DNA of 64,000 bases from Heptranchias perlo (lineage: Eukaryota), in contig NC_090341.1 in NCBI RefSeq assembly GCF_035084215.1, forward strand, positions 15,810,001 to 15,874,000, given 5' to 3'. How positions within the stretch are numbered: position 1 is the stretch's first letter; the number at the start of each line of letters is the position of its first letter. The position numbers and the translations under genes are program-made. Below, piece after piece: positions 12,883 through 61,978 of this stretch. The notes below the pieces were generated by a model. The model saw nothing but the letters and a program-made list of their open reading frames with translations. It was not told the DNA's origin and did not search any database.

Positions 12883-15814
12883 ATTGTAAACAATTTTACA
12901 ACACCAAGTTATAGTCCAGCAATTTTATTTTAAATTCACAAGCTTTCGGAGATTTCCTCCTTCCTCAGGCAAATGTTTCAAGAGCTCCTTGAAGCCTACG
13001 CATTTATACATATTGAACAATACATGGTGTTTACAGACTGCCCCTGCAACTGCCCGTTGCCAAGGCAATCACCGTGTTCAGACAGAGAGGTGTCACCTGC
13101 AGAACCCCCGAATACACATTCAACAAAAAAACAAACAGGGAAAAAAAACAGAGAAAAAAAAAACACAGAGAGAGGCAGAAACATCCGGAAGGCAGAGAGA
13201 GCCAGCAAATGACCCATTATATTAAAAACAGATAACATTTGTTCGCTGGTGGGGTAACGTGTAGCGTGACATGAACCCAAGATCCCGGTTGAGGCCGTCC
13301 TCATGGGTGCTGAACTTGGCTATCAATTTCTGCTCGACGATTTTGCGTTGTCGTGTGTCTCGAAGGCCGCCTTGGAGTACGCTTACCCGAAGGTCGGTGG
13401 ATGAATGTCCATGACTGCTGAAGTGTTCCCCGACTGGGAGGGAACCCTCCTGTTTGGCGATTGTTGCGCGGTGTCCGTTCATCCGTTGTCGCAGCGTCTG
13501 CATGGTCTCGCCAATGTACCATGCTCTGGGGCATCCTTTCCTGCAACGTATGAGGTAGACAACGTTGGCCGAGTCACAGGAGTATGAACCATGCACCTGG
13601 TGGGTGGTGTCATCTCGTGTGATGGTGGTATCTGTGTCGATGATCTGGCATGTCTTGCAGAGGTTACCGTGGCAGGGTTGTGTGGCGTCGTGGACGCTGT
13701 TCTCTTGAAAGCTAGGTAGTTTGCTGCGAACGATGGTCTGTTTGAGGTTGGGTGGCTGTTTAAAGGCGAGTAGTGGAGGTGTGGGGATGGCCATAGCGAG
13801 GTGTTTGTCCTCATTGATGACATGTTGAAGGCTGCGGAGAACATGGCGTAGTTTCTCCGCTCCGGGGAAGTACTGGACGACAAAGGGTACTCTGTTGGTT
13901 GCGTCCCGTGTTAGTCTCCTGAGGAGGTCTATGCGATTTTTTGCTGTGGCCCGTCGGAACTGTCGATCGATGAGTCGAGCGTCATATCCCGTTCTTACTA
14001 GGGCGTCTTTCAGCGTCTGTAGGTGTCCATCGCGTTCCTCCTCGTCTGAGCAGACCCTGTGTATTCGCAGGGCCTGTCCATAGGGGATGGCCTCTTTGAC
14101 GTGGTTAGGGTGGAAGCTGGAAAAGTGGAGCATCGTGAGGTTGTCCGTGGGCTTGCGGTAGAGTGAGGTGCTGAGGTGCCCGTCTTTGATGGAGATTCGT
14201 GTGTCCAAGAAAGAAACTGATTCTGAGGAGTAGTCCATGGTGAGCTTGATGGTGGGATGGAACTTGTTGATGTTATCGTGTAGTCTCTTTAGTGATTCCT
14301 TGCCGTGGGTCCATAGAAAGAAAATGTCGTCGATGTATCTGGTGTATAGTGTTGGTTGGAGGTCTTGTGCAGTGAAGAAGTCCTGCTCGAACTTGTGCAT
14401 GAAAATGTTGGCGTATTGGGGTGCGAATTTGGTCCCCATGGCTGTTCCGTGTGTTTGGGTAAAGAACTGGTTATCGAAGGTGAAGACATTGTGATCCAGG
14501 ATGAAGCAGATGAGTTGTAGGATGGCTTCCGGAGATTGGCTGTTGTTGGTGTTGAGTATTGATGCTGTCGCAGCGATGCCGTCATCGTGGGGGATACTGG
14601 TGTATAGTGCCGAGACGTCCATCGTGGTGAGAAGTGTTCCTGGTTCAACTGGTCCGTGGGTACTGAGTTTTTGTAGGAAGTCTGTAGTGTCACGACAGAA
14701 GCTGGGGGTTCCCTGTACGATGGGTTTCAGGATGCCCTCGATGTATCCAGAGAGGTTCTCACACAGGGTTCCGTTGCCTGATACGATGGGACGTCCGGGT
14801 GTGTTGGCTTTGTGTATCTTTGGGAGGCAGTAGAAGTCTCCCACGCGGGGATTACGTGGGATGAGAATGCGTAGGATGCTTTGAAGGTCTGGATCGAAGG
14901 TCTTGATCAGTTTGTTGAGCTGGTGGGTGTGTTCTTTGGTCGGATCTGCGGGTAACCGTCTGTAGTGTTCCTGGTTGTCCAGTTGTCGGTATGCTTCTTT
15001 GCAATAGTCTGTTCTGTTCTGTATGACTATGGCTCCTCCTTTGTCCGCTGGTTTGATGACGATGTTGCGGTTGGTCTTGAGAGCGTTGATGGCGTTGCGT
15101 TGTGCTCGGGTGACATTCTGGACTGTCTTCTGAGTGCGGCTGATGAATCTGGCATTGACGCATTTCCTGACAGCTTGAGCATACATGTCCAGCTGAGGGC
15201 AGCGACCCTCCGGAGGAGTCCAGTTTGACTCTTTCCTCTTCGGTTGCTGTACCGCGGATCCCTCTGTCTGCTGTTCCGGATCGTCGATTGTCTCATTGGG
15301 TTCGCTGCTGAAATCTTGGGGTTTGTGGTAGAATTCCCGGAGCCTCATTCTCCTGATGAATTCCTCTGTGTCCGCCGCGAGACTAGTGGGGTCCATTTTG
15401 GTAGTGGGGCAGAAATTGAGCCCTCGGCTGAGAACTTCGATTTCGTCTGGTTGAAGGGTGTGGTCGGATAAATTGACAATAGACTTCCCTGTGGTTGCAA
15501 CCGTGGTACCAGGGGAAGCTTGGTCGTTGCTGGTGGTGATGCCGAGTTTCTCAAGCTTCCTGCTCTTGGTTTTCATGTAGGCAGCGTAGTTCCATTGCCT
15601 CGTCTGTTTGGCGGTATAACGTAGCTGGTCTGCTGTGTCCTGAGTACAGGTTGAGAGTATGGACTCTATCTTGGTTTCGAGGTTGTGGCGTCTGCTGTAG
15701 AGTTGGTGTATGAGATGGTTGCGGAGTGTGCGAGAGGTACGGCGGCAGAGTCTCTCAGCGTAATCCGAGTTGTATGTGGACTTGAGTGGGTTCGTGATCT
15801 GGAGTCCTTTCGGG
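12883..15814 (-). mobile_element. Penelope-like element (Neptune-type), 5'-truncated, young
   Basis: Flanked by 11-bp duplication ATGTGTTTACA (12872, 15815); long open ORF plus 3'UTR containing a hammerhead. Confidence 0.95.
12935..12973 (-). ncRNA. Minimal type I hammerhead ribozyme (PLE 3'UTR)
   Basis: UUUGC CUGAGGA A GGAG-GAAAU-CUCC GAAA GCUU GUGAA. Confidence 0.85.
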
Positions 15815-15831
15815 ATGTGTTTACAGCCCAA
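13222..15831 (-). CDS. PLE reverse transcriptase + GIY-YIG endonuclease (first codons host-derived, native start missing)
   Basis: YCLPKIHK, MDVSALYTSI, GTAMG, RYIDD, YRKPT RT motifs; CHGNLCKTC Zn-finger-like linker; VVYLIRC...WYIGET...RMNGH...GLN GIY-YIG; no stops in 869 codons. Confidence 0.95.
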   Translation of the reverse strand: MGCKHIPKGLQITNPLKSTYNSDYAERLCRRTSRTLRNHLIHQLYSRRHNLETKIESILSTCTQDTADQLRYTAKQTRQWNYAAYMKTKSRKLEKLGITTSNDQASPGTTVATTGKSIVNLSDHTLQPDEIEVLSRGLNFCPTTKMDPTSLAADTEEFIRRMRLREFYHKPQDFSSEPNETIDDPEQQTEGSAVQQPKRKESNWTPPEGRCPQLDMYAQAVRKCVNARFISRTQKTVQNVTRAQRNAINALKTNRNIVIKPADKGGAIVIQNRTDYCKEAYRQLDNQEHYRRLPADPTKEHTHQLNKLIKTFDPDLQSILRILIPRNPRVGDFYCLPKIHKANTPGRPIVSGNGTLCENLSGYIEGILKPIVQGTPSFCRDTTDFLQKLSTHGPVEPGTLLTTMDVSALYTSIPHDDGIAATASILNTNNSQSPEAILQLICFILDHNVFTFDNQFFTQTHGTAMGTKFAPQYANIFMHKFEQDFFTAQDLQPTLYTRYIDDIFFLWTHGKESLKRLHDNINKFHPTIKLTMDYSSESVSFLDTRISIKDGHLSTSLYRKPTDNLTMLHFSSFHPNHVKEAIPYGQALRIHRVCSDEEERDGHLQTLKDALVRTGYDARLIDRQFRRATAKNRIDLLRRLTRDATNRVPFVVQYFPGAEKLRHVLRSLQHVINEDKHLAMAIPTPPLLAFKQPPNLKQTIVRSKLPSFQENSVHDATQPCHGNLCKTCQIIDTDTTITRDDTTHQVHGSYSCDSANVVYLIRCRKGCPRAWYIGETMQTLRQRMNGHRATIAKQEGSLPVGEHFSSHGHSSTDLRVSVLQGGLRDTRQRKIVEQKLIAKFSTHEDGLNRDLGFMSRYTLPHQRTNVICF

Positions 15832-15862
15832 CGAGGAAGGAAGCAGTGCTGTATCTAGTTAT

Positions 15863-16121
15863 TGTAAACAATTTTACAACACCAAGTTATAGTCCAGCAA
15901 TTTTATTTTAAATTCACAAGCTTTCGGAGGCTTCCTCCTTCGTCAGGTAAATGTTCAGGAGCTCCTTGAAGTCTACCTGAAGGAGCTCCTGAACATTTAC
16001 CTGACGAAGGAGGAAGCCTCCGAAAGCTTGTGAATTTAAAATAAAATTGCTGGACTATAACTTGGTGTTGTAAAATTGTTTACAATTGTCAACCCCAGTC
16101 CATCACCGGCATCTCCACATC
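15863..16121. mobile_element. PLE-derived hairpin element
   Basis: 105-bp inverted arms (15863-15967 / 15980-16084), 37-nt tail ending CTCCACATC, 12-bp TSD GTATCTAGTTAT. Confidence 0.95.
15996..16034 (+). ncRNA. Minimal type I hammerhead (mirror copy on - strand at 15913-15951)
   Basis: UUUAC CUGACGA A GGAGG-AAG-CCUCC GAAA GCUU GUGAA. Confidence 0.85.
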
Positions 16122-17701
16122 GTATCTAGTTATGGGGAATTAAGTGGAGCATATTTCAATGGGGGAGTATTTGGAGAATAGTGATCATAATATCATCAGG
16201 TTTAGAATAGTTATGGAAAAGGACAAGGAACAATCAAGCGTAAAAATAACTTCAGTGAGTTAAAAAGGGATCTTGCCCAGGTGGATTGGAATCAATAATT
16301 GGTAGGCAAAACAGTAATTGAACAATGGGAGGCCTTCAAACAGAAGATGGTTTGGGTACAGAGTAGACACAGTCCCACGAAGGGGAAAGGAAGGGCATCC
16401 AAAGCTAGAGCTCCCTGGATGACCAAAGATATAGAGATTAAAATTAAACAGAAAAAGGAGCTTATGACAGATATACGGTTCATAATACAGTAGAGAACCA
16501 AGCTAAATACAGAGCAGATCTAAAAAAGGAATAAGATTGGCAAAGACAGAGTATAAGAATAGTTTGTTGGCTAACATAAAAGGGAACCCAAAAGTCTTTT
16601 ATAAACATATATATAAATAGTAAAAGGGTAGTCAAAGGAAGGGTGGGGCTGATTAGGGACAAAAAAGATCTTCTTGTGGAGGCAGAGGGTATGGCTGAGG
16701 TACTAAATGAATACTTTGCATCGGTCTTCACTAGAGAAGAGGATGCTGCAAATGTAACAGTAAAGGAGGACGTAGTAGCGATATTGGATAGGATAAAAAT
16801 AGATAAAGAAGAGGTACTTAAAAGATTGACAGTACTCAAAGTGGAAAAGTCAACCTGTCCAGATGGGATGCACCTAGGTTACTGAGGGAAGTAAGGGCGG
16901 AAATTGCGGAGGCTCTGGCCACAGTCTTCCATTCCTCCTTCAGATATGGGGGCAGTGCCAGAGGACTGGAGGATTGGAAATGTTACACCTCGGTTCATAA
17001 AAGGAGAGCGGGATAAACCTGACAATTACAGGCTAGTCAGCCTAATGTAGGGAAACTTTTAGAGATAATAATCCAGGACAAAATTAATTGGCACTTGGAA
17101 AAATGTGGGCTGATAAATGAAAATCAGCATGGATTTGTTAAAGGAAAATCATATTAGACTGACTTGATTGAGTTCTTTGATGAAGTAACAGAGATGGTTG
17201 ATGAAGGTAATATGGTTGATATGTATATGGACTTTCAAAAGGCATTTGATAAAGTACCACATAATAGACTTGTTAGCAAAATTAAAGCCCATGGAATTAA
17301 AGGGTCAGTTGCAGCATGGATACAAATTTGGCTAAGGGCCAAAAAGCAGAGAGTAGTGGTGAACGGTTGTTTCTCAGACTTTTCAGTGGTGTTCCCTAGG
17401 GGTTGGTATAAGGACCACTGCTCTTTTTGACATATATTAATGACCTGGACTTTGGTATAGAGGGTATAATTTCAAAGCTTGCAGATGACACGAAACTCGG
17501 AAATGTCATAAACAGTGGGGAGGATGGTGACAGACATTAGGAGGATATAGACAGACTGGTGAAATGGCAGATGAAATTCAGAGAAGTCTGAAGTGATACA
17601 TTTTGGTAGGAAAAATTAGGAAATGCAATATAAACTAAATGGTACAATTTTAAAGGGAGTGCGGGAACTTTGAATACTTTGCGCCTGTCTTCACAAAAGA
17701 A

Positions 17702-18333
17702 TTGTAAACAATTTTACAACACCAAGTTATAGTCCAGCAATTTTATTTTAAATTCACAAGCTTTCGGAGGCTTCCTCCTTCGTCAGGTGAACGATGTGAA
17801 AATGAAAACCTCGAAATGAAATCGCATTTATAATTCACAGAACAATGCTTGGTGAGTACAGACAGTTTTTTCAACTGCCCGTTGCCAAAGCAATCAGTGT
17901 GCAGACAGACAGGTGTTACCTGCCAGGTCTCACAGAATATACAAATCACCAAAAAAAAAACAACAAACAAAAAAAAACAGAGATAGAGAGGTAGAAACAT
18001 ATGTTTCTACCTCTCTATCTCTTTTTTTTTGTTTGTTGTTTTTTTTTTGGTGATTTGTATATTCTGTGAGACCTGGCAGGTAACACCTGTCTGTCTGCAC
18101 ACTGATTGCCTTGGCAACGGGCAGTTGAAAAAACTGTCTGTACTCACCAAGCATTGTTCTGTGAATTATAAATGCGATTTCATTTCGAGGTTTTCATTTT
18201 CACATCGTTCACCTGACGAAGGAGGAAGCCTCCGAAAGCTTGTGAATTTAAAATAAAATTGCTGGACTATAACTTGGTGTTGTAAAATTGTTTACAATTG
18301 TCAACCCCAGTCCATCACCGGCATCTCCACATC
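17702..18333. mobile_element. Large PLE-derived palindrome
   Basis: ~300-bp arms with no spacer (centre GAAACAT|ATGTTTC, 18000/18001), 36-nt tail, TSD (TC)TTCACAAAAGAA. Confidence 0.95.
18208..18246 (+). ncRNA. Minimal type I hammerhead (mirror copy on - strand at 17753-17791)
   Basis: UUCAC CUGACGA A GGAGG-AAG-CCUCC GAAA GCUU GUGAA. Confidence 0.88.
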
Positions 18334-18502
18334 TTCACAAAAGAAGGGGACGATGCAGACATTGTAGTTAAGGAGGAGGAGTGTGAAATATTGGATGGGA
18401 TAAACATAGTAAGAGAGGAAGTAGTAAAGGGTTTAGCATTTTTGAAAGTAGATAAATCGTCAGGCCCGGATGAAATGTATCCCAAGCTGTTAAGAGAAGC
18501 AT

Positions 18503-18759
18503 GATGTGGAGATGCCGGTGATGGACTGGGGTTGACAATTGTAAACAATTTTACAACACCAAGTTATAGTCCAGCAATTTTATTTTAAATTTCTAATGAT
18601 TTAGACTTAAATGTAGGGGACATGATTAAGAAATTTGAAGATGATACTAAAATTGGCCGTGTGGTTGACAGTGAGGAGGAAAGCTGTAGACTGCAGGAAG
18701 AGATCAGTGGACTGGTCAGGTGGGCAGAAAAGTGGCAAATGGAATTCAGTCCTGAATTT
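18503..18759. mobile_element. Chimeric insertion: PLE 3' end (~89 bp, - strand) + 162-bp copy of 19328-19489
   Basis: Direct sequence comparison; AAGCA at both flanks (18497, 18760). Confidence 0.9.
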
Positions 18760-20867
18760 AAGCAAGGGAGGAAATGGCAGAGGTTCTGACCATCATTTTC
18801 CAATCCTCCCTGGCTACAGGCATGGTGCTGGATGATTGGAGGACTGCTAACATTGTACTGTTGTTTAAAAAGGGAGAAAGGGATAGACCGAGTAATTACA
18901 GGCCAGTCAGCCTAACCTCGGTGGTGGACAAATTATTGGAAAAAATTCTGAGGGACAGTATTAATCGTCATTTAGAAAGACACGGATTAATCAAAGACAG
19001 TCAGCATGGGTTTGTTAAGGGAAGGTTGTGTCTGACTAATTTGATTTAATTTTTTGAGGAGGTAACAAGGAGCGTCAATGAGGGTAGCGCGTTTGATGTC
19101 GTCTACATGGATTTTAGCAAGGCTTTTGACAAGGTCCCACATGGCAGACTGGTTGAAAAGGTGAAAGCCCATGGGATCAAAGGGAAAGTGGCAAGTTGGA
19201 TCCAAAATTGGCTCATTGGCAGGAAGCAAAGGTTAATGGTCGACGGGTGTTTTTGTGACTGGAAGGCTGTTTCCATTGGGGTTCCGCAGGGTTCAGTATT
19301 AGGTCCCTTGCTTTTTGTGGTATATATTAATGATTTAGACTTAAATGTAGGGGACATGATTAAGAAATTTGAAGATGATACAAAAATTGGCCGTGTGGTT
19401 GACAGTGAGGAGGAAAGCTGTAGACTGCAGGAAGAGATCAGTGGACTGGTCAGGTGGGCAGAAAAGTGGCAAATGGAATTCAGTCCTGAGAAGTGTACGG
19501 TAATATATTTGGGGAGGGCAACCAAGGCAAGGAGCCACACAATAAATGAGAGGATACTGAGAGATGTAGAGGAACAGAGGGACCTTGGAGTGCATGTCCA
19601 CAGATCCCTGAAGGTAGCAGGACAGATAGATAAGGTGGTTAAGAAGGCATTCTAGCCGAGGCATAGAATATAAAAGCAGGGAGGTTATGCTAGAACTGTA
19701 TAAAATACTAGATAGGCCACAGCTTGAGTACTGTGTATAGTTCTGGCCACCACATTACAGGAAGGGTGTGATTGCACTAGAGAGGGTGCAGTGGAGATTT
19801 ACGAGGATGTTGCCAGGATTGAAGAATTTTAACTATGAGGAAAGATTGGATAGGCTGGGAATGTTTTCTTTGGAACAAAGGAGGCTGAGGGGAGATTTAA
19901 TTGAGGTGTATAAAATTATGAGAGGCCAAGATAGAGTGGATAGGAAGGACCTATTTCTCTTAGCAGAAAGGTCAATAACCAGGGGGCCTAGATTTAAAGT
20001 AATTGGTAGAAGGATTAGAGGGGAGCCGAAGAGAACCTTTTTTATCCAGAGGGTGGTAGAGGTGTGGAACTCACTGCTTGAATGGGTGATAAAGGCAGAA
20101 ACCCTCATCACATTTAGAAAGTACTTGGATATGCACTTGAAGTGCCACAACCTACAAGACTACAGACCAAGTGCTGGAAAGTTGGATTAGGCATGATAGC
20201 TCTTTTATGGGCCAAATGGTCTCCTTCTGTGCTGTAAATTTTCATGGTTCTATGATTCTATGAGGAACAGAGAGACCTGGGAGTGTACATACACAAATCT
20301 TTGAAGGTGGCAGGACAAGTTGAGAAAGGTGTTAAAAAAGCAAATGGGATCCTTGGCTTTATTAACAGAGGCATAGAGTACAAAAGCAAGGAAGTTTTAC
20401 TAAACCTTTAATAAAACACTGGTTAGGCCTCAGCTAGAGCATTGTGTTCAATTCTGGGCACCACACTTTAGGAAGGATGTCAAGGCCTTAGAGAGGATGC
20501 AGAAGAGATTTACTGGAATGGCACCAGGGATGAGGGACTTCAGTTATGTGGAAAGACTGGAGAAGCTGGGGTTGTTCTCCTTAGAGCAGAGAAGGTTAAG
20601 AGGAGATTTGATAGAGGTGTTCAAAATCATGAATGGTTCTAATAAAGTAAATAAGGAGAAACTGTTTCCAGTAGCAGAAGGGTCGGTAACCAGAGGACAC
20701 AGATTTAAGGTGATTGGCAACTGAGGCGACATGAGAAAACTTTTTTTTTAAGCAGCGCGTTATTATGATCTGGAATGCACTGCCTTAAAGGGTGGTGGAA
20801 GCAGATTCAGTAGTAAGTTCAAAAGGAATTGGATAAATATTTGAAGGGAAAAAAATTAAAGGGCGTT

Positions 20868-21660
20868 GCACCCCTATGCACTATACACTTGATGTATAGT
20901 GCAACAGAGATCAATGACCACATTCCCAATGAGATGCAAAATAAAATCTGCAATCAAGTTAAAGAAGTTCAAAGTAAAATAATTGATAAATTTACATCTG
21001 AGCAACAAATGTAATTTAGTGATACATCTTTGTGACAACAAGAAAAGAATGATCCTCATTACATGTTCTTGAATCTATTGGATGAAGTGAAAAGTTTCAA
21101 TCATTTTCAGACATTTATCCATTAACTATTCATTCCATATAGCTATTCAGTACTCAACCAAAAAGAATTGTTAGAATGTGGTCAAGACCTGGATTTACAA
21201 TTAAATAAAATTGGATGTATATTAGGAACCAGATGGGTTGCAAATTCATACAGGATGGTGTGTACTGTACAAAATAACTCTGAGGTGCTTTCTGCTTATT
21301 CCCTTGTTGCTTCAAAAGATGAGAAAAGACAAAGGGGAAACTGAGCTATGAATTCATCCAGGATTTAGGCATATTGTGTGACGTTCTTTATGAATGATCT
21401 CTGCTTTAAGGGTTATTGCACAAGCAAGGTATCACACTTATATATGTAGAGAAGCTACTGAGATGTGCAACATAAACCATAGAGATTATGAAGAAAAAAC
21501 CTGGCAGAAGGATACTGGAAGTGAATGAAGACTTCAGAGCACATAAGAAAGTCCAATGAAAAGTGTCTCTATAGTCTAATATCTAATAGAAGGCATGTTA
21601 GCTTCAACCACCGGTAGTTTTTCTCCAGCTTGATAAACTACATGAAAGATTAATTATTCG
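20868..21660 (+). mobile_element. Decayed hAT transposase fragment (KIAA1586/ZNF862-like)
   Basis: Manual translation near 21160-21257 gives NQKELLECGQDLDLQLNKIGCILGTRWVANSYR, with the hAT 'TRW' motif. Confidence 0.55.
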
Positions 21661-22653
21661 CCATTCTTTCACCACACCAAGAAGATCATGGGGACAGTGA
21701 ACATCAGGGTTCAATTCTCTTACTGCTTTCTCTTTCTCCTCAAAATCTAATTTTTTGATCCTGCATTTGGCCAGCCCTCTTAATATTTGTATTACCTCTC
21801 TGTGTTCTTCTATGTTTTATTACATTGAAGTACTTTACAAATGTAAGTTGTTGTGAAACAAGTTTGCCTCTTTGGGGCAGTACCCACAAATTATGCAATA
21901 AGAAGGGCTATGGCAGAAAGTCTGGACGCTATCATTTTGCCCATATAGACGGACTAAATTTCAAGGCACTCTTGAGTGTACCTCTGTAACTTTATATCTT
22001 AACCACCTGCCCTAGTTTATCGAAGTTAGTCTTTATCTGATTTTCCTGGTGTGTTTTGCTGTGCATTAGCCATGCTTCATGGCAACCAATGGTCAGCTTT
22101 TGACCTCATCCTGTTGTCTTGAGCTTCTTGAATTCTGTCTCCTCTTGGCTTTATCCTCTTTATCTATCTTTTTCTTTTGCCCTTTTGTACTAGTTCTTGT
22201 TTTCTCACAGATGAAGGTTGTGTGTAACTGCCTAGTTTAAGAGGAATATCTTTCTCTATGTACTTTGAGACTGATAGGAAATATCATCAATGCCAAGCTG
22301 AAATATGGGTTTATTAAATATCTATATCCCATGTGCATAACGTATTAAATGGACTGGAGGATTTAAGATGTGTGGATAGCCAGTATAACTAGTATTGCAA
22401 AACTAGAAGTGATACATAGAATCCTTCTGATGCTTGCGAGAGAAACTATCCATAGTGATAAACATTTTTTAGATTTTAAGCTCAAATCTATTTAAGTTCA
22501 GAGTCAATTCTTTGCATTAGGATCAAGATAATTCATTCCAATAGGACATAAATAATAAACAGCATGATTCCTAACCCGCACTTGAATAACTTTCATGTAA
22601 CAGAAAAATTGTATTCTGTCCTCCAAGTTAAGCTGTGACTTCGGATATTTAAA

Positions 22654-22884
22654 CCAGTGGCTCTCAATCTTTTCTGCGTGGGGCCCTCTAACTTTTGACG
22701 CTCTCCTGAGGATCCACACTTCCAAAATTCTGCTTCAGCAACTCAAAGAAAAACAATGCTATGACTCTAGAAAATGTTTTTTTTATTATTATTAGTATGT
22801 AACAATAGAAATAGCATGTAGAATTCTGATGCCCTCACGGACCCCCTAAAGTTCCCTTGGGGATCGCCAGTTTGAAAACCTATG
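22654..22884. mobile_element. hAT/Charlie-like MITE
   Basis: Imperfect TIRs CAGTGGCTCTCAA ... TTGAAAACCTATG. Confidence 0.55.
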
Positions 22885-23191
22885 ATTTTAAGCTGGTCAA
22901 ACTACATTCTTATGTTTCTGCTCCTGTACTTTGAACCATTGCCATTATATCTCTCACAATACACCTCTATTAACTGTCTGAAGTTCGACACTTACCTGCA
23001 GAAACTTAATTTCCAGTAGTATATTTGGGATTGGCCTAGATGTCTACTGAAAAGCACTTGAGTTGGGAAAAAGTCAGAATCAGCAGAATACTCAAGTGAT
23101 ATAGCCTTTTTCGAGCTCAAGCACCTTGCAATTTACTATTATATAAATGAGGAAGGGAGAGGAAGTACTCAATAATGAAATATTGCTCCCT

Positions 23192-23333
23192 AGGGGTTAT
23201 GGGGAGCGGGCAGGAAATTGGATATGAATTTAGATTTGAGGTTAGGATCAGATCAGCCATGATCTTATTGAATGGCGGAGCAGGCTCGAGGGGCCGATTG
23301 GCCTACTCCTGCTCCTATTTCTTATGTTCTTAT
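23192..23333 (+). mobile_element. CR1 3'-end fragment
   Basis: ggagcaggctcgaggggccga...cctactcctgctcct...ttcttatg tail; similar short tails at ~49395, ~50980, ~51945. Confidence 0.75.
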
Positions 23334-23911
23334 GGTATTCTACATTGCTTAGGTAGTGTTATTTTATGATGCTCAAGTGAACATGTATGAATATTGTGCT
23401 TATGTGCAGAAAACTGGGAAAAGGCAGAGTTTAGTGTGTGTATTTTGTGATGGAGACCAAAATGTATTGAACTAGCTGTACTTATATATATTAAAAAATT
23501 ATCTTTTGGGCGAAATGGCCTTTTGTTTTTAGTACTTTATTTTCTAAAGAATTAGCTCTGCAAACACTGCTCTCTTTTAAAATTATTTATAATATTTTGG
23601 TGAGAATTTTAATATTTATAATAAAAACTGACTCTGGCTCAGGCTCCCCTAAAGCTTTTTAAATTTTAGTTTCTTTTTCAAAAATTGGATTAAATAACAA
23701 TAATGTACTTGTGTGTGGCTGGTTGATTGAAGATGTCATTCCTGGTAAAATACAAATGTTTAGCTGAAATCCTCTCAAGTCTTGGCTATATTTCCTAGTA
23801 CTACAAATCATACACTTCACTGATGGTTTTACTGAGTGCACTGATATAAAAGTACTCCATTCCCCAACTCTTTGTTCCATGCTTTAATGTTCATACAATG
23901 ACAAAAAAGAT

Positions 23912-24389: not shown

Positions 24390-24480
24390 ATTTTTCATCA
24401 CAATAAACAAAACTTAACTATGTGTTTCCAGTCATGTATTTTTCATCACAATAAACAAAACTTAACTATGTGTTTCCAGT
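24388..24480 (+). repeat. 45-bp tandem duplication at the duplication breakpoint
   Basis: gtatttttcatcacaataaacaaaacttaactatgtgtttccagt twice, separated by CAT. Confidence 0.95.
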
Positions 24481-46872: not shown

Positions 46873-47233
46873 GATGTGGAGATGCCGGTGATGGACTGGG
46901 GTTGACAATTGTAAACAATTTTACAACACCAAGTTATAGTCCAGCAATTTTATTTTAAATTCACAAGCTTTCGGAGATTTCCTCCTTCCTCAGGCAAATG
47001 TTTCAAGAGCTCCTTGAAGCCTACGCATTTATACATATAGAACAATACATGGTGTTTACAGACTGCCCCTGCAACTGCCCGTTGCCAAGGCAATCACCGT
47101 GTTCAGACAGAGAGGTGTCACCTGCAGAACCCCCGAATACACATTCAACAAAAAAACAAACAGGGAAAAAAAACAGAGAAAAAAAACAGAGAGAGGCAGA
47201 AACATCCGGAAGGCAGAGAGAGCCAGCAAATGA
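46873..47233 (-). mobile_element. 5'-truncated PLE 3'UTR with full tail and hammerhead (46960-46998, -)
   Basis: Near-identical to 12880-13213 plus the GATGTGGAGATGCC... tail; short AGGAG flanking repeat. Confidence 0.92.
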
Positions 47234-50401: not shown

Positions 50402-52675
50402 GTACGTGGTAACTTTTGTCATCTGTGCTGTTTGTCATTTTCTTACCATAATCTTAAAGTTGGGTTTGAATGAAATCCTTCCGGGAGGGCATTACTGTCC
50501 TAGATACTGGGTTAGCTTCTCCTCTCTTTTATTGTGTGGTTTATAACATTCCAAAATCATATGGGAGTCTGTGACTAAGATATGCAATGACCATTGAATT
50601 AATGAGCTCCACATTGCATTTAGCAATTGTAAGTAATCAGTCCAAAAATAAATGGAAGCTGGATTCAATTGTAATATGTTGGGATGAGCCAGTGCCTTTC
50701 CTCCATGGTCCAGAAAGTGTGGCTCTATGCTGAGTAAAAGTGAGGCTTACAAAAAACCCAGCAGATCATAGTCACGTTAGTTTGCCATAATGTTTTAACA
50801 CTTATCTTCGCGTTTGGGTTGTATGTGCTGTGTTCTGTTCCAGCCTAGTACAGTAATAATTAATGGGGAAATGAAAGTGTACCTATCGGCAGCATCCCTG
50901 AGCGGCTTCATTATAAATAGCTAGAAAACAACTTCAAACCATAATAATTATGGTTTTGGGACTAGCTTAGTGGTATAAACTGGGCGACATGGACATGTTG
51001 GGCCGAAGGGCCTGTTTCCATGTTGTAAACTTCTATGATTCTATAATTCTAATTAAAAGGGGAATGAAAGTGTATTTTTTGTTCTAAGTGACTTTTTTTC
51101 CAATGGCAATGAAATCCCTGCCATGAATTCCCTCTGGTAGGAGCTCCCTCCCTGCGAGACTACTGCGATGGCATTAATTACGGGAATGCACCTGCATATT
51201 CTGGAGTTGGTCTATTGCAAGCAGAGGGGCTGTAACACCAGACTGGACTGAGAGTTGCTATGGAGCTGTCTGACCCAAGGAAATTACACCATAATCTGGG
51301 AAATTTTCACTTCTGGCCAGTAGCCAGGTCTCCTAGGGGTCAGTTGGCTTTGAGGTTGTACACTGGCTACTTATAATGAAGCCACTCAAGATACAGCCCT
51401 TGATATTATTAAAGTTTCCTAAAGAGGAGGAAGAAACACGCTACTCGAGGGTTGCTAATAGGTGATAAAATTGCCGTTTTTTTATAAAAACAGAAGAATA
51501 ACTTTCTTGTATAAAAGAGGCGTGCTTTAAACAATAAGAGCTCCCACTAGACGTTTGTTCACCTTTTAAGGGTAGTTTTTAAAAGGGGATGGTTGACTAA
51601 AATGTTATAGACTTATGAGCAACATTTATGAATGCAACTTAAGTGACCTATATAATGGGTCATCTTTTTATCGTAAAAATATGAAATATATGACTTGGAA
51701 ATATATCGCCGTTCCTTCATTGTCGCTGAGTCAAAATCCTGGAACTCCCTTCCTAACAGCACAGTGGGAGAACCGTCACCACACGGACTGCAGCGGTTCA
51801 AGAAGGCGGCTCACCACCACCTTCTCGAGGGCAATTCGGGATGGGCAATAAATGCTGGCCTTGCCAGCGACGCCCACATCCCGTGAACGAATAAAAAAAA
51901 AAATGAAAGAAGACCCTATCTTCTTTTCATTCTACTATCTAGAATGATCCAATTGAATGGTGGAACAGGCTGGAGGGGCTGAATGGCCTACTCCTGTTCC
52001 TTATGTTAGTATGTCTATGTTTTTGACATTGATTTAATTGGAATTCCTTGCTGGGGAACAAACCCTTTTTTTTGCCTGGTTGACATCAAAGGGTAGAATT
52101 TACAGATTTGTACTCCTGATGCAGAGCTTTGTAAGCCAGGATTCTACATTAGGAATTCTGGCAGGCCAGTATTTTGTAAAATTTTCATTCTTGAACAGAG
52201 AGGAAATCCTCCACGTCTGAATGTGCTCCCAGCACCTGAAACTCCATGGCAGGAGCACAACTTCCTAAAACTATCTTAAAGTCCAAAGATGTTCCATAAT
52301 GAGGCAAAGTGAATTGTGCAAAGTGAATGGCTGGGCCATTATTCAGTCAGAAAGGCTTGATTTTCATGTTGACCCATTCTTACTACTGTGACTCGTCCAA
52401 TGCAGTCGCAAATAAATGCAACTGCCGACCCTGACAAATTGAATTGAGAGACTGACCATGTGTCCAAAGGAGCTGCTAAAAGTGAGCCTTTTCAGAACTG
52501 CAATAGCATTACATAGAATTACATCGAATTTTACAGCACGGAAACAGGCCATTCGGCCCGACAGGTCTATGCTGGTATTTATGCTTCACATGAGCCTCCT
52601 CCCACCTTACTTAATGTCACTCTATCAACATATCCTTTTACTCCTTTATCCCTCATGTAATTATCTAGCTTCGTC

Positions 52676-53953
52676 TTAAATGGACAAGTGTGGATTAATA
52701 AAGGAAAGCCAGTACGGATTTGTTAAAGACAAATCATGTTTAACTAATTTGATTGAGTTTATTGATGAGGTAACAGAGAGGGTTGATGATGGCAATGCGT
52801 TGATATATACATGGACTTTCAAAAGGCGTTTGATAAAGTGCCACATTATAGGCTTGTCAGCAAAATTGAAACCCATGGAATAAAATGGGCAATGACAGCA
52901 TGGATACGAAATTGGCTAAGTGATAGGAAACAGAGAGTAGTGGTGAATGGTTGTTTTTCGGACTGGAAGAAGGTATACAGTGGTGTTCCTCAGGGGTCAG
53001 TGCTAGGACCACAGCTTTTTTTGATATATATTAATAACGTGGACTTGGATGTACAGGGCACAATTTCAAAATTTGCAGAAGACACAAAACTTGGAAGTGT
53101 AGTAAACAGTGAGGAGGATAGTAATAGACTTCAAGAGGACATAGACGGGCTGGTGGAATGGGCGGACACATGGCAGATGAAATCTAACGCAGAGAAGTGC
53201 GAAGTGATACATTTTGGCAGGAAGAATGAGGAGGGGCAATTCTAAAGGGGGTGCAGGAAAAGAGAGACCTGGGGGTATATGAGAACAAATCTTTAAAGGT
53301 GGCAGGACAGGTTGAGAAAGTGTACGGGTTCCTGGGCTTTATAAATAGAGGCATAAGAGTACAAAAGCAAGGAAGTTATGTTGAACCTTTATAAAATACT
53401 GGTCCAGCCACAACTGGAGTATTGTGTCCAATTCGGGGCACCGCACTTTAGGAAGGATGTGAAGACCTTGGAGAGGGTGCAGAAAAGATTTACTAGAATG
53501 GTTCCAGGGATGAGAAACTTTACTTACATGGATAGACTGGAGAAGCTTTTAGAGCAGAGAAGGTTGAGAGGAGATTTGATAGAAGTGTTCAAAATCATGA
53601 AGGATTTAGGTAAAGTAAATAAAGAGAAACTGTTTCCATTGGCGGAGGGGTCGAGAACCAGAGGACATAGATTTAAGGTGATTGGAAAAAGAACCAAAGG
53701 CTACATGAGGAGAAACATTTTTACGCATTGAGTAGTTCTGATCTGGGATGCGCTGCCTGAAAGGGTGGTTGAACCTGCTTCCATCATGGCTTTCAAAAAG
53801 GAACTGGATAAATACTTGAAGGGAAAAATTTGCAGGGCTATGGGGAAAGAGCCGAGGAATGGGACTAACTGGAATGCTCTTACAAAGAGCTGGCACTGGT
53901 TCGATGGGCCGAATGGCCTCGACTTCTGTAATGTAACATTCTATGATTCTATG
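52676..53953 (+). mobile_element. 5'-truncated CR1 nested in an opposite-strand CR1 3' end (52510-54045)
   Basis: RT ORFs 52811-53731; ttctatgattctatg tail. Confidence 0.85.
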
Positions 53954-54044
53954 CATCTATGCTTTTCGCCTCTACCACTCTGAGTAAAGAAGTTTCTCCT
54001 GAATTCCTTATCGGATTTTTTAATGACTATCTTATATTTGTGTC

Positions 54045-54440
54045 CAAAAGCAAAATACTGCGGATGCTGGAAATCTGAAATAAAAACAGGAAATGCTGGA
54101 AATACTCAGCAGGTTAGGCTGACAAGAGGGATGATGGTGCAAGGCAAAGGGGGTGGTAATGGGACAAGTAATGAAATAAAAGATGGGTCTAGAGGAGCTG
54201 TAAATGGCAACAGCAGAACCAATACCAATACCTGCTTAAAAAAAATGGGAGCAGTGGTTATGATCTGAAGTTGCACCCTAAGCTTTCAATCGCTTGCCAT
54301 TTTAATTCTCCGTCCCACTCCCACTCTGACCTCTCTGTCCTCGGCCTCCTACACTGTTCCTATGAAGCTCAACAGAAGCTCGAGGACCAACACCTCATCT
54401 TTCGATTAGGCACTTTACAACCTTCCGGACTCAACATTGA
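54045..54440. mobile_element. PLE family B rearranged fragment
   Basis: Tail caaaagcaaaatactgcggatgctggaaatctg (- strand) joined to + strand GIY-YIG C-terminus HFNSPSHSHSDLSVLGL...LEDQHLIFRLGTLQPSGLN. Confidence 0.8.
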
Positions 54441-55484
54441 CCATTTTCTCGGACAACAGGTGCTGGTAATGGTATTCAAATGAACCCCAGTGCATTGTTC
54501 GCACTTTTTATGACTTTGTTAATCTTTGATCCTAATGATCAACAGTGGTGTAAACACACTTTATCCTCACTCTGTAAACACAGTCTTTGGGGAGCTAAGC
54601 ATTTTGGGTATTTAACAAAAGTGCAAGCGATAGTGAATATCTCAGAATGCAACATAAAATATAACCTAAAGAAACTGAGAGCCAAGATTCGCTCTCTTTT
54701 GCATTAGAGAAGTGGCAGCATCCTAAAGGCGGTAACATATTTAAATTAAAAGGAAATCATTTGGAGTTGGAGGTTTTCTTTATACCTTGCTCCTTATTTT
54801 TTGAAGCACTCAGCATTACGCAGAATATCCCTTATATATCCAAATTATAGCAAATGTTTTGCTTGCTTATCTCAGTTACAAAACAATCTGATTTTAAAGA
54901 TTTTATCCATCTGGTACTAAGTACAAGTATAACTGTACCTTTAATTTCATGAGCCTTGCTGTCAGTTGTGTTGATTTTCTTTCCAAGTATGAAGTAATAA
55001 ATTGACCCTCTTTGACAGGATTGCTTTAAAGTCTGTCCATCACTCCAGTTGTAATAAATCCTTCATACTACATGTGTGGTCTATGAATTGTGAAGTTTTT
55101 TTTGTATCTCTGCACCATTGACGTCACATAAATTAATTTTAAAATTATGTAAACGCAACCTGACAGGGCCGGCAGTGATAAACTAGTAAGTCACGAGTAG
55201 AGATATCAGGCCAGCCTAACTTGTGAAAGTATTTGTCATATTTCACTGCTGGGTATGACTTGTCCCTTCATACAAACTACAAATCTAAACCAAATCACCA
55301 GTCAGCTGCAAAGAAACTTTGAAAATAGGCAGACCTTTGTTGCTAGACTATGTATAGTACATGTTACCAAAAGTCCACAGTCCATTAAGATTGATACGTT
55401 TTTGAGAAAAAAGCACATCCTAAGTGCACTAATGTGGTAATGTATTTACACAATCTTCTTCACGTACCCTCTCTTTTTTTACAG

Positions 55485-55586
55485 TGATAAAGGAATGAAA
55501 TACATGGCGGGAAAGGACTGGCGGGATCTTTTTGACTTGGTGATCGTCCAAGCTGACAAGCCGACCTTTTTTACGGATAAGCGCAA
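55485..55586 (+). CDS. NT5DC2: NT5DC2 exon 9 (HAD motif III K)
   Basis: tacag acceptor; [33 protein letters not shown](K); donor GTAAGT. Confidence 0.95.
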
Positions 55587-56083
55587 GTAAGTGGTGTTGT
55601 AAGCGTTTGAAGTGGAGCATATCCTTAACTATTCTGTTCACTTTAGTTTGGCTACAATATGTATTCTACATGTTGTAGAAAACCATTCAACGCTGTCAGA
55701 TAGAAAACATAACCAATTTTAAATAACTATAAACTGTAACTCTTCTGGACTAATGTGATTTTCAATGAAGAAAAATATCTAGAAGCATATGTAAAGTACA
55801 GACTCATCCCAGGATCTCTTTATGGTAAAAGCCAAGAGCACAGAGAGGCAAACATAGAAAGGGTCAAGCAAACCTTCTTTGGAAAGCTGATCAGAAGGAA
55901 AATAGTATTTTCCCAAATTAAGAGCACAAAGTAAATATATGGAATTGCATTTTCTGTGTAACTATGCCTGGCTACTTGGCATCTAATGACAGAGATTAAG
56001 TCTGTCTGGGTTGCAATTTTTCTGCAGTTTCATCCTCGGACTGTCTAATTACTGGCTGGGTAATGATTGTTTTCTTTTGTCAG

Positions 56084-56165
56084 GCCTTTCAGAAGACTGG
56101 ATGACACGGGTGCACTGCAGTGGGACAAAATCAACAAACTAGAGAAGGGCAAGATGTATAAACAG
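56084..56165 (+). CDS. NT5DC2: NT5DC2 exon 10
   Basis: gtcag acceptor; [27 protein letters not shown]; donor GTCAGA. Confidence 0.95.
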
Positions 56166-57184
56166 GTCAGAACAATTGGTCCGTGTTTAGTGCTACAGTG
56201 TGTTTTCCAACATTCCCTTGATCTGTATTGCATTGCTGGGATCATATTCTCTGATGTTTACTAATGTTGGTCAGCATGAAGTGGGAAACCTGCCTTATAC
56301 TCAAGCTGACTTTTTCGGTAGACTTCATAAATGGAGAAAAATATACGTCAAGGCTGTTTTTCTTCTTGTAAGTTGAACCGTAGACTAAAGCTGGAGAAAG
56401 ACTGGTCTTACCAACTATGTTTCTCTAACTGGTTATAGTTAAATTAATTACCCATGTTGAATATTTCAGTACTGCTCGAGCCAAGAGCGTGAGGCTAAAA
56501 AAAGATTTAAAGAAATCAAACTTTTCAGATTAGGGGTGGGATTTTTTAGGGTAGTTTGGCAGGGGGGGGGAGAGAAAGGAAAAACACTGCAGCGATAACA
56601 TTGGAGGCGATTGTTTTGGAAAATAAATAACTTTTAAAACATTTGATTGATTATACAGTTCACTGGATTTTTGTTGGGTTCATGCAGAAGTAAGAAAAAG
56701 TCAAAGAATAAGGACAATTTAAGTCTACCAATGTGTAAAGCAGTTCTGTTTGATTTCCTCCCCCACTTCAACTCTACTGAGTCTCCAATTGGCATTTCCC
56801 AAGCAGTGAGGAACAAATGATGGAGAGTCATTGCTGGACTTTCTTGGGCCTGATCAGGACCAGCTTTGAGTGGCATTGCTGGAGGCCTGGGAGGAAGGCA
56901 AGGGAAATACTTGGCCAGTTCCGAAGTGTACTGGCTCAGTACCTGCAGTTCAGCAGCCAAGATGAGAAGGGGTGTTAACCTGAAGCATTTTCCACTCTAC
57001 TTGCCCTCTGAGCAAAATCAGCTGGCCAACTTGCTCCCTGCTGGTGTGGGGAGCTTGCAAAATATATGGAAATAATTCCTTCTTATAGGAGATATCTTTA
57101 TATTCCCTCCCCATGGAGTTTCCAGCAGAAGGGAAACTTAGAATATCCCCTATAAGAAGGGCCGCTTTCTATATATTGTGTTTT

Positions 57185-57560
57185 CCAATTTTCTTCCACT
57201 TTCTCCCACCCTCTCCTGAAGATGCTGACTCTTGCAGGGGTAGAGTTCAAAGACAGCCCTCTCTCTGGCCCAAGTGGCCATTTTTGTGTGAGCCTAGACT
57301 GTGAGCTTCAGCAGGCTATTCAACAATGGAGGACATCACAGGTGAGATGGATCCTGTTCTCGCCCACTGTCCATACATATACACTTCAGAATGAGAATCC
57401 TTTGCCTCCTCCTCTTCCCTCTTTAGCTTGGGGACACAGAGGCCTATGCTGCCCCAGCTGAGATCAGCTAATTTAGCACCGACTGAGAATTCAACTTCAC
57501 GTGATCTGGTCTGTATGGTTTATTGCTAAACTGAGTGATGCCTTTAACCACAAGACCATC
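57185..57560 (-). mobile_element. AmnSINE2/Nin-like SINE (another partial copy at ~48960-49190)
   Basis: ccccagctgagatcagctaa core in reverse complement. Confidence 0.55.
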
Positions 57561-58549
57561 AGGGGAGTAATAAGGTGGACTTTTAATTTTTTTTCTATTA
57601 CCTAAATTGGCTGTGTCTGTGTAGTTTTATATTGACAGTACTCCCATCCACTCCCATACAACCCCCCTCCCCCCAACTCTTGCCTCCTTTTCATTTTTTT
57701 TCTGTGTGAATGTACAGCAGTAGGCAGCTTTGATGTGCAATACAATAGAATGATGAGCTGGCTGTATCCCAGTTTGGCTGACCTGGCTGCATCTCTCTGC
57801 TGTAAGCATATTCACCTCAGTGTAGTCCAAGCACAACAAGCTGAGTTCCGTCAAAAGCCACACGTATACATATACATATTAATGGCTGCTCAGATTTAAG
57901 CTATAATAATTTAACTGAAATGTGCTGTTTCTATTTCATTATGCAGCTTTTTTTATAGTTCAGTAGATTTGTATAATTTTTACGATAGCAATTTATTCAT
58001 TGATTTGTAATTCAGAGATCGTTGTCTTTGATGCTGTGATTCTCTGGGTACTTCAGCATAGTCCTTCTTCCTTGTTACCATGACAATATCCCTCTCATTC
58101 TAACAAACAAGCAAAACATGCTGAATGTTTTGTCCCATGCATCCACTGTGAAATTGAAATGCGACTCTGATGAAGATCAGTTGTATTTTCACTCACGTTA
58201 CTGCGGCTGTTCATGAAGTCAGTTTTCATGTTAAAACCAAATGTTACATAATTTCAGTCTTTTTTTGTGTGCATGGTAGCCTTCTGGGTTTCTGATCCCA
58301 GCTAACCGGCCACGGAGAAGCAGCAAGTAGCGAGGAGATGCTTCCCAGTTAGGAAGGGAAAAGTGGAGGATAAGTCCTTTTATGTACCTTATGAACTGAT
58401 TGCATGTCAGGAGACCGGAGAGGGTCATTTGTCCACCCATTGGCTGGTAACTAGTGTTCAGAGGAACTGAAAAGAAGGAACTAACTTAAGGGGGAAGTGG
58501 AAATAAAGTTTCAAGAAATCAGATACTGAAGGAAGTGATGTCTTTGAAG

Positions 58550-58862
58550 GTGTCAGCTGTGGCCCTCTCAGGTGGACGTAAAAGATCCCGTGGCACTATT
58601 TCGAAGAAGAGCAGGGGAGTTCTCCCTGGTGTCCTGGCCAATATTTATCCCTCAACCAACATCACTAAAACAGATTATCTGGTCATAATCGCCATAATCT
58701 CATTGCTGTTTGTGCGATCTTGCTGTGTACAAATTAGCTGCCGCGTTTCCCTACATTACAACAGTGACTACACTTCAAAGATACTTCATTGGCTGTAAAG
58801 CACTTTGGGACGTCCTGAGGTCATGAAAGACACTATATAAATGCAAGTCTTTCTTTGTCTTT
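58550..58862 (+). mobile_element. DeuSINE, 5'-truncated
   Basis: Well-preserved body and tail (aaaagatcccgtggcacta ... atgcaagtctttcttt). Confidence 0.8.
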
Positions 58863-59134
58863 CTTAGTATTAGTAAATGGATAGGTGACAATTCAGGTCC
58901 ACTACACTTTTTGAAATAACGAATTCCTTATTAGAGTCATTTCATAAACAAAAATAACTTCTTGGATGGCAGGCCTTAGACAATAATCATTAGCCTGCAG
59001 CAACCTCAATTAGCTATAGTTCTTTTCAGGGAAAATGTCATCATGGCTCAGGTGGCCTAAATAAGTACAAAGCACTATGAAAAGAAAAATAAGTAACATT
59101 TGAGATTAATTCGTAATTAAACGAAAATGATAAG

Positions 59135-59500
59135 TTTACCCAATGAGTAGCTGAGCTATACAAACAAGGGAGTTCCCAGGTTCGATCCCTGGTAAGTGTT
59201 GAGTTGGCAGATGTCAGCTAGGGTTGCAGGAAAGGTGCTAAAATTGGCCTCAGTATCCCTGGGCTTGGGGGTGGAAAATTGATCAGGGTTCCTGCACCTG
59301 ATCCTTATCCCACAACATCTGCTGGAAAGTGCATGTGTGTGGACATTGGGTGAGAACAAGATTGAATGTTGCTGTGATGCCCCTGTGGATGAATAGCAGG
59401 CACAAGAATAATGGCCAACTGTGCGCGGTGCCAGAAAGCATAGCACCTGTGGAAGTGTATTCCATCCAGGAGAGCAGAGAATAAAGTTGATGAGGGGAGA
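59135..59500 (+). mobile_element. AmnSINE2/Nin-like tRNA-headed SINE
   Basis: B box ggttcgatccc followed by the shared core. Confidence 0.6.
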
Positions 59501-61772
59501 ACATGTGAATAACTTTCTACTCAGTAATTGTTTCATATAATTTCTTTACAAACAGAAACTAAATCCATCAAAATTGGCTTTTTAGGAATAAACCATGGGA
59601 GTTCCTACACAAAAGGGAGACCGTTGGCTCATTGAGCCTGTGCAGCTTGCTCCTTTATGTAAGCACTGCTCACAATTAGCATGTAAATCACTTCAGTGCA
59701 ACGGTGAATTCCTTTTATGCAGAATGGGCAGCGCTTGGAAAATAGAGAGGTACAAAATATTTCTAAACAGTCAAACGCTGGTTTCTGGCTGTAAATTCTC
59801 ATCATTATGCATCAACCTTTGAACATAGAAGATGGAAACGTGACAAACGGAGAAGGGAGAAATTTGAAATACAACAGCGGACTGTATGAGATTCTAACTT
59901 TTAAACTTCAGTCTGCATGTTGCCATGTGGAAAAATGCATATGTGGAGGTAACTAGAAGGTTGTTATTCAGATGAAGGACTCTAATGGTGCCACAGAGTG
60001 TGAGAATGCAACAAAAGAAGGTTCTTAGTTACAGCAAGCTGTAGGATTGAATTACAGCCTTTAAGTCCTTTAAAAACATGTAGTATTTCTTGTCATATGC
60101 GCCAACTGACTTTGCAATGAAGCAAGGTATTAGGAACTGTGCCAACACAAGGGCGCTACTGCAGAAACTGGGTGCTTGGAGGGGAATGCTAATGACTGTT
60201 AGAGGCAGTGCCCTGATAGTGAGAACAAACCTCATCTTTGATTCACAGGACAGTATAATAATTAGTCTGGAGAATAATTGTGGACGTATTTCAAAATTTT
60301 ATCTGGTATAGTAGTCACTCATTGATTAGCTGCATCATCTTTTCAGTGTGTAAACTAGAACAAACATATCAGTTTTTAATCTCAGCTTCTATAACTTTTA
60401 TTGCTGGACCATGCTTTGTGAGGATTGGAACAGAACTTGTAGTCAGATGTATTTCTGGATACGTATACATAGTTTGACAATGTCATGACTCAGTCAGTTG
60501 GGGAGCGGCAATCTGGCTCTGTCAATAACCCTGTCATATTTTAAACATGACTCTCAGTGAAATGCAGATCTGCTTTCCACCAGTTGCCTCTCACTTGCAG
60601 TTTGCACTGCATTTGAAATTTAATGCAGCAACAATGACAACTGGATGTGTGCTTTACAACGTAAAGGATGTCTGTGCTTGGGAAGAGAATATCTTCCTCA
60701 TTTTTGCCATCCATTGTCAGATATAGCATGGGCTTAAGTGTATCAGTGTGAAATACCATTCCCTTGCTGTCAATTTCACACATGCCAACCGTCTGCATTT
60801 CACGTGAACAGTCAGCATTTTGGAGTTAGTATCTGCTTCTGTGTGTTTGCAGATGAAAATCGGCACTGCTTCCAGCTCCTACCTGATGCTGCTGTTCCAG
60901 GGGATGGAACTCTGCTGCACGTTGTGGATGGGATTTTTCACAGGAGTTTTGTGAGATCAGGAATTCCTGCCCATACCGTGCCACAATAGCAGCAGCATAA
61001 GGTAGGAACCAGGAGGGTAGAAAGGTGCCATCAACTCTGATAATTGTATGCATCCGATGAATGAAAACAGCTGGAATCTCTACTGACTGACAATAGACAG
61101 TGAACATATTCAATCTTACCACAATCTTCACCATTTGTCTGTTCAAATGACAAAACAGTTCTATAAGTAGCCTGAATGCGCTCACTGGGTGAGTGGTGCA
61201 ATGACAGGCTGCACTGATGGGCAATAAGATGTGAGAGTCTCCCCAGCTCAAGTTCCCAAAGTCAAGCAAAAGTCCTCTGCATAAGGCAATCCCATAAGAG
61301 TGACAAAGAAAAACCGAAAGAAGAGCAAACTCGCATTACTAATGCACACCCAGCTCCTGACCATTTACAGGGAGCGGCATTGGTGGGAATTAGGTGCATA
61401 AGACTGTAAGTAAATAACTTTAGGAACAGGACACAAAATAAGGTCAACACAAAAAACCATGGCATGTTAAAGAAAGGCACAACTTTTTCATATCACTAAG
61501 TCTGTTCAATTTCTGCAATGTAATTGACAGCTTCTTCGTTCTTTATAAGTATAATAACCTGTTAAAGTTGGCAGATTTTATTCCGTGCCTGTCGGACAAG
61601 GCCTGTGTTACCAGTAAGATTCTAAACTATGAGAAGAAAGATACTTGTAACACAAATTACTATGTAATTAAGTCTGTTTGACAAACCTTTAGCCCAGTTT
61701 ATGTTGCAGGTGTATATCTCTTTTGGCTTTGGAGCCTGAAGTGTTATATAAATTAATGCCAATGCAGGAAAG

Positions 61773-61978
61773 TGTAAGGAATCTTACAACACCAGGTTAT
61801 AGTCCAACAGTTTTATTTGAAAATCACAAGCTTTCGGAGCTTACCTCCTTCGTCAGGTGAGCGAAGGAGGTAAGCTCCGAAAGCTTGTGATTTTCAAATA
61901 AAACTGTTGGACTATAACCTGGTGTTGTAAGATTCCTTACATTTGTCCACCCCAGTCCATCACCGGCATCTCCACATC
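61773..61978. mobile_element. Hairpin element of a diverged PLE subfamily; intact hammerhead on - strand 61824-61860
   Basis: 80-bp arms (61773-61852 / 61862-61941), 37-nt tail ending CTCCACATC, TSD AATGCAGGAAAG; UCAC CUGACGA A GGAG-GUAAG-CUCC GAAA GCUU GUGA. Confidence 0.92.

Follow-up and report, generated by a model that had tools for sequence, protein, structure and literature searches.

The window, a 64,000-nt stretch of the Heptranchias perlo genome (GCF_035084215.1, NC_090341.1, positions 15,810,001-15,874,000, forward strand), contains six independent insertions of one Penelope-like element (PLE; Table 1). Target duplications of 11-14 bp are clear at four of the six, and a comparison of flanks gave no clear target duplication at 18503-18591 or 46873-47233. 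An earlier note on this DNA had described six insertions sharing one terminus; the six are indeed separate, but they have two ends, 35 nt apart, rather than one. We ruled out that 12883 and 15863 are opposite ends of a single element, since each has its own target duplication. The same note placed a coding element here, which did not stand: the long copy lacks the ATG along with its first 38 codons, and no upstream repeat accompanies it. Its open frame is 878 aa long, and the 14 codons preceding the element-derived part come from a flanking repeat. Four of the six insertions lie in decayed CR1-like repeats within 6 kb (window 12227-20724), two of them 45 bp apart. Insertion 18503-18591 is fused to 162 nt (18594-18755) duplicated from DNA close by (19328-19489), and this copy was probably templated in the course of repair. 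An open frame at 9303-9677 (+), beginning MASLLAKS, may be a host exon.

Table 1 Element insertions in the window and their features (window positions)
Feature	Position	Strand	Details
5′-truncated long copy, subfamily alpha	12883..15815	-	11-bp target duplication; order: ORF without first 38 codons, 3′ UTR, TATA box, hammerhead, short 3′ end
Element-derived reading frame, 864 codons	13222..15816	-	RT (YIDD), CX4CxxC linker, GIY-YIG
TATA box	13003..13008	-	from sequence
Predicted transcription start	near 12978	-	inferred from the subfamily's end pile at TATA+30
Minimal hammerhead, loop II GAAAU	12935..12973	-	complete core match at 12968; predicted cut before 12939
Head-to-head palindromic insertion	15861..16121	both	12-bp target duplication; tail on + arm only
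Core	15996-16034	+	complete core match at 16001
Core	15913-15951	-	complete core match at 15946
Head-to-head palindromic insertion, subfamily beta	17700..18333	both	14-bp target duplication; 289-nt arms; tail on + arm only
TATA box	18167-18172	+	
TATA box	17827-17832	-	
Core	18208-18246	+	complete core match at 18213
Core	17753-17791	-	complete core match at 17786
Short tailed copy without core	18503..18591	-	begins 3 nt after predicted cut
Solo 5′-truncated copy, subfamily alpha	46873..47233	-	3′ UTR, TATA box, core, tail
TATA box	47028-47033	-	
Core	46960-46998	-	complete core match at 46993
Short head-to-head insertion, gamma-like	61770..61979	both	13-bp target duplication; tail on + arm
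Core, complete	61823-61861	-	complete core match at 61856
Core, partial		+	arm begins within core

Natural tandems elsewhere in the genome have a unit of 3,081-3,083 nt with intact 902-aa ORFs, which begin 114-116 nt earlier than the frame of the window copy. The unit runs in the order ORF, 3′ UTR, TATA box, hammerhead, a short 3′ end at about +56, a 35-nt tail to about +91, and the next ATG at +92, where position 0 is the base that directly follows the predicted ribozyme cut, itself placed right after GAAAGCUU. The single ORF matches RVT_1 (E 3.4e-10) and, below the Pfam cut-off, GIY-YIG (E 6e-4), with a VVYLI..YIG motif; between RT and endonuclease lies a CX4CxxC linker, CHGNLCKTC, at residue 753. 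A CX2-5CxxC linker is described as marking Neptune or Nematis (PMC8557442), and only Neptune and Poseidon are reported for vertebrates in the available text of bioRxiv 10.64898/2026.07.22.740005. The closest named proteins are from sharks (Heptranchias, 93-96%; Scyliorhinus, 80-85%; Mustelus, 80%). Each of the 40 best genome matches found with the 128-nt end reproduces it without a difference, indicating that the element was recently active, and a 35-nt 3′-end pattern has 49,500 genome matches and none for its reversed control. The pseudo-LTR layout is present in the tandems and in the single 35-nt tail of 152/159 inverted pairs. The sequence thus supports a young, abundant PLE with a Neptune-type linker, a criterion that also fits Nematis. 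On these points the earlier note is borne out: a PLE by its RT, linker and GIY-YIG, the linker being of Neptune type, with shark relatives, recent activity (the tandem ORFs being intact) and more than four subfamilies (we count 14 clusters).

Neptune-clade vertebrate PLEs, as described in PMC4209133 and PMC8557442, share with this element an RT with C-terminal GIY-YIG, the CX2-5CxxC linker, pseudo-LTRs, tandem and inverted insertions, and a 30-40-nt tail on one end. The rotifer element Pen2a_Av (PMC3846280) likewise has a putative TATA box and initiator in its repeat, inverted repeats with palindromic junctions, solos and a tail. Two further observations concern the element's surroundings. Nearly all subfamilies retain a block of 25 nt that precedes the TATA box by about 45-65 nt (window 13040-13075, 17865-17900 and 47065-47100, all on the - strand); we take it to resemble an RFX X-box accompanied by MYB-type sites, as might be expected of a promoter active in the germ line. 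In public gene models, host genes (in one shark, epn2) are fused with RT sequence of the element, which may be annotation artefacts.

All seven complete minimal type I hammerhead cores that had been claimed for the window were located by pattern search. Each consists of stem I, CUGANGA, an extra A, the GGAG/CUCC helix, GAAAGCUU and stem I again, and the loop II variants (GAAGC, GAAAU, GUAAG) and stem I variants are as claimed. An eighth GAAAGCUU at 61879 (+) is without CUGA; no core is present in the insertion at 18503. The claim that core and GGAG/CUCC helix are invariant holds for the window cores but not for stem II genome-wide, where GGGG/CUCC and GGGG/CCCC also occur. The core pattern has 80,410 exact genome matches compared with 0 for a reversed control, so the motif is not due to chance; about 9,000 motifs are reported for Xenopus, by differing search methods (PMC4209133; PMC8557442). 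The motif shows every feature of the minimal PLE hammerhead listed in PMC4209133, namely CUGANGA and GAAA boxes, an extra base after A9, G10.1-C11.1 and a palindromic 15.2-16.2, and the last three, including the palindromic stem III, are shared with the Neptune-clade hammerhead (PMC4209133; PMC8557442). The Rfam hammerhead search that the note had proposed returned no hammerhead among 14 matches at E up to 10, and a PDB sequence search returned 0 matches.

Minimal PLE hammerheads are described as cleaving as dimers (PMC4209133, PMC6765202); 8 of 9 Xenopus hammerhead dimers failed to cleave (bioRxiv 10.64898/2026.07.22.740005). Opposite-strand hammerhead pairs 100-700 bp apart, together with many single motifs, are described in PMC4209133. 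In the window, paired ribozymes of the short inserts lie on opposite strands and face away from each other, indicating that these inserts are not tandem dimers. For the two palindromes that have a core on the + strand, predicted folds of read-through RNA trap this core within the long duplex. Several features of the motif and its neighbourhood are recorded here as separate observations. The variant GAAAGATT, found in more than one cluster, disrupts the AGCU palindrome. The predicted cut falls directly before GUGAAU (window 18242-18247 and equivalents), a word weakly resembling a splice donor that lies 46 nt downstream of the predicted beta start; in Drosophila Penelope the intron likewise begins 46 nt after the start (PMC2377424). 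No spliced form was seen, and contigs of uncertain kind from four sequencing runs contained neither a start nor a splice joint. A second, unrelated hammerhead family, with stem II AGGU/ACCU, occurs beside the window and in the flanks of other loci. Its stems differ, its palindrome is ACGU instead of AGCU in 4/6 motifs, which fits a putative pairing between two copies, and downstream lie a pyrimidine tract, CAG and ATG, resembling a splice acceptor.

The earlier note had also proposed that the ribozyme is under structural selection, which our data support only in part. We examined 63 arms, an arm being one element-derived stretch in a single direction, from loci that were not chosen by the core pattern, and counted a variant when it was common to two of the 14 clusters. 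Shared-variant columns were fewer in core plus stem II than in the flanks as a whole (1/23 versus 31/141, P 0.05), in agreement with the proposal, but the 3′ flank alone was as conserved (2/50 columns, P 1.0). Shared variants otherwise fell at N7, in loop II (2/5 columns) and in stem I (4/10 columns). Pair covariation among 10 hand-picked sequences did not exceed that of shuffles: 93% of cells were paired with 2 two-sided changes, and 67/500 shuffles scored as high.

Most inverted insertions are built from two different 3′ ends. In a non-random sample of loci, 152 of 159 head-to-head pairs combine one tailed and one short arm, and their target duplications have a mode of 12 bp, compared with 4-5 in controls. 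Eight of 92 pairs with two complete cores have arms that are unlike at N7 or loop II, several of them by subfamily marks, indicating that two RNAs can feed one insertion. The available text of PMC3846280 ascribes Pen2a_Av palindromes to self-priming on an antisense template, whereas some shark pairs have arms from two subfamilies; it ascribes Pen2a_Av solos to recombination or deletion, whereas shark solos carry target duplications. The shark pairs agree with what PMC11167929 describes for Poseidon PAc of the green anole: cutting and extension of both strands, two internal RT starts and uncut RNA as the main substrate. PAc shares with the shark element two RT start sites that define the tail, AT-rich targets and, in the available text of that study, no ends at the ribozyme cut. 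It differs in belonging to the Penelope/Poseidon clade, unlike the shark element with its Neptune-type linker, and in having a ribozyme that overlaps the start codon and RT sites 111-118 nt inside the ORF, all of which lie before the ATG in the shark element.

To map 5′ ends relative to the predicted cut, we took an unbiased sample of 3′-pattern matches (94 of the first 100 listed, minus 5 host duplicates), which gave 89 arms. Forty of these end at -29 to -50; the others end at +6 to +20 (4), -3 to +5 (6), inside the core (5), at -51 to -75 (8), at -76 to -299 (7) or beyond (19). Per base at risk, the end rate is 3.3% in the interval from -29 to -50, 0.8% around the cut and 0.15% between -76 and -299. 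The pile of ends sits upstream of the core rather than at the predicted cut, and 74/89 arms span the whole core. Genome matches with an A before position 0, +2 and the control position +21 number 93, 82 and 66, of which 29/30, 23/30 and 20/30 checked were true ends. The excess of ends at the predicted cut is weak at most.

Transcription by RNA polymerase II begins some 30 nt downstream of a TATA box. With three subfamily patterns (8,380, 4,063 and 6,123 genome matches) we mapped 86, 54 and 52 arms, respectively, taking the places that head each list of matches on one contig, which is also where our samples mostly come from; the patterns need an arm to reach -34 or -35. The end modes were -39 where the TATA box is at -69, -46/-45 where it is at -75 and -36 where it is at -66, with a weak fourth mode at -41 (TATA -71) that is tied with -37 (2 each of 9). 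Among arms truncated within 190 nt, 36/121 end at TATA+29/30 (P 0.006 for random offsets), compared with 22 in the best cut-anchored window, and among arms without an inverted partner the fraction is 14/53 (P 0.005). The 36 arms comprise 17 tailed and 19 short-ended ones, indicating that position, not length, sets the end. The modes hold at TATA+29/30 despite differing spacing between TATA box and ribozyme, and we conclude that many short copies are likely to be cDNAs of an uncut 5′ leader. In the window, the starts predicted in this way fall at 12978, 18196 and 47003. The beta end is the A of TCATTTT, which we take to be initiator-like. Some ends lie elsewhere: 18/192 arms extend beyond the predicted start and stop at -51 to -75. 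Both arms of 15861-16121 also begin upstream of that start, about 50 and 54 nt before the predicted cut, and 61770-61979 is the sole one of the five short insertions in the window with an end close to the predicted start. The base before the beta start is G in 276 genome matches and T in 63. We rejected this as a cap-G signature: when 30 of the G loci were inspected by eye, the G was in most cases supplied by an adjoining inverted partner or target copy, and only one looked untemplated.

Together, we consider it probable that these are insertions of one young PLE whose RNA starts about 30 nt after the TATA box, and that many of the short copies are DNA copies of its uncut leader. Under this mechanism, a leader of 130-140 nt before the start codon would carry the predicted hammerhead. 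The RT-endonuclease would cut both target strands, and reverse transcription would prime inside the RNA at two sites, one per strand, corresponding to the two 3′ ends (+56 and about +91), by analogy with the anole element in vitro. Priming in the first transcript repeat would run off at the RNA 5′ end and yield a leader copy, and priming in a later repeat would yield a longer, randomly truncated one; the two cDNAs would then be joined head to head via microhomology or fold-back. The ribozyme would probably cleave only as a dimer, through the AGCU palindrome, and the RNA behind short copies would be mostly uncut. Transcription starts within the upstream repeat are described for other PLEs (PMC8557442, PMC6765202); the Drosophila Penelope promoter, which is TATA-less (PMC2377424), is a counterexample.

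The pile might instead reflect RT stalling or cDNA fold-back at local hairpins or microhomologies upstream of the ribozyme, rather than the RNA 5′ end, an explanation that we consider unlikely. The alpha RNA has a predicted hairpin ending near -38 that could stall RT, a fold-back junction at -39/-34 recurs at 8 alpha loci, five ends coincide with a palindrome at -47, and, as noted, some ends lie upstream of the predicted start. However, solo arms show the same TATA+29/30 mode, the AT-rich, self-complementary stretches at +3 to +18 have no pile, and whole-ORF cDNAs pass through the same sequence with a single stop in 19 (see below).

The earlier note had interpreted the short inserts as a separate family of ribozyme-bearing derivatives. 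Such a self-propagating non-autonomous family, retrozyme- or SINE-like and mobilised by the coding element, seems improbable to us. Non-LTR retrozymes, as described in bioRxiv 10.64898/2026.07.22.740005, are short non-coding hammerhead units derived from PLE repeats, and two junctions recur exactly at 5 loci each, the second set being enriched by the search used. However, 139 short pairs, again from a non-random sample of loci, include 121 different inner sequences, the most frequent junction is found with either of two loop II variants (6 and 2 loci), the arms bear the same subfamily marks as long copies, and their ends track the TATA box, which is absent from copies beginning at the predicted start or downstream of it. 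Moreover, retrozymes are head-to-tail tandems thought to be self-propagating, whereas the short inserts, in the window and beyond, are solo or head-to-head, with mostly unique junctions. Least probable, and disfavoured as the main route, is that short copies begin where the ribozyme cut the RNA, as R2 does at its HDV-like ribozyme cut: the slight excess at -3 to +5 and at the A before the cut, and the window copy 18503-18591 beginning at +3, contrast with an excess that is about two-fold and not sharp, being nearly matched at +2, with the many arms that traverse the whole core, and with a subfamily of about 6,100 cores for which 339 or more genome matches begin at the predicted start.

If, as we favour, short copies run off at the start of uncut leader RNA, copies that extend through the ORF can be compared with them at the same site. 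Of 41 arms chosen by the ORF 5′ region, 19 traverse the leader a second time as far as -34, and 1/19 stops at -34 to -50, compared with 37/86 first-pass alpha arms (P 0.001; some of the 19 come from one array). A simple two-repeat linear RNA does not predict so low a rate. That whole-ORF copies skip the stop might be due to long arrays (eight or more units would account for it without circles), to transcripts reading through from promoters further upstream, or to circles; RNA circles for PLEs were proposed in PMC4209133. A more specific reading, which we offer tentatively and regard as doubtful, is that two templates are used: capped, uncut linear RNA would give rise to the tens of thousands of leader copies, ending at the transcription start, and in RNA with two hammerheads these would pair, cut the RNA to unit length and allow its closure into a 3.08-kb circle giving rise to whole-ORF and tandem copies, which would skip the start-site stop because RT copies the circle past its origin. 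If that reading is true, the genome holds the first trace left in vivo by the circular step that has been proposed for PLEs.

Both the ribozyme and the element type were already known; what is new is the mapping of ends relative to the TATA box. A surface-level search of the literature on PLE promoters, sharks and circles found no study of this shark family or of TATA-tracking ends, and the pile at TATA+29/30 was not found in the literature searched on Neptune-clade PLEs; preprint supplements may list the family, and bioRxiv 10.64898/2026.07.22.740005 sampled one chondrichthyan. The finding concerns the cellular role of PLE hammerheads, which cleave weakly in vitro and for which the available text of the anole study (PMC11167929) reports no reads at the cut. 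Because the family is young and its tens of thousands of copies are nearly identical, insertion ends preserve a record of the RNA forms that served as templates, and our sample points to uncut leader RNA as the dominant source of short copies. Leader copying is thus a likely mechanism for the numerous solo ribozyme motifs in animal genomes, and the mapping of insertion ends offers a cheap test of the circle model and a handle on the role of the ribozyme.
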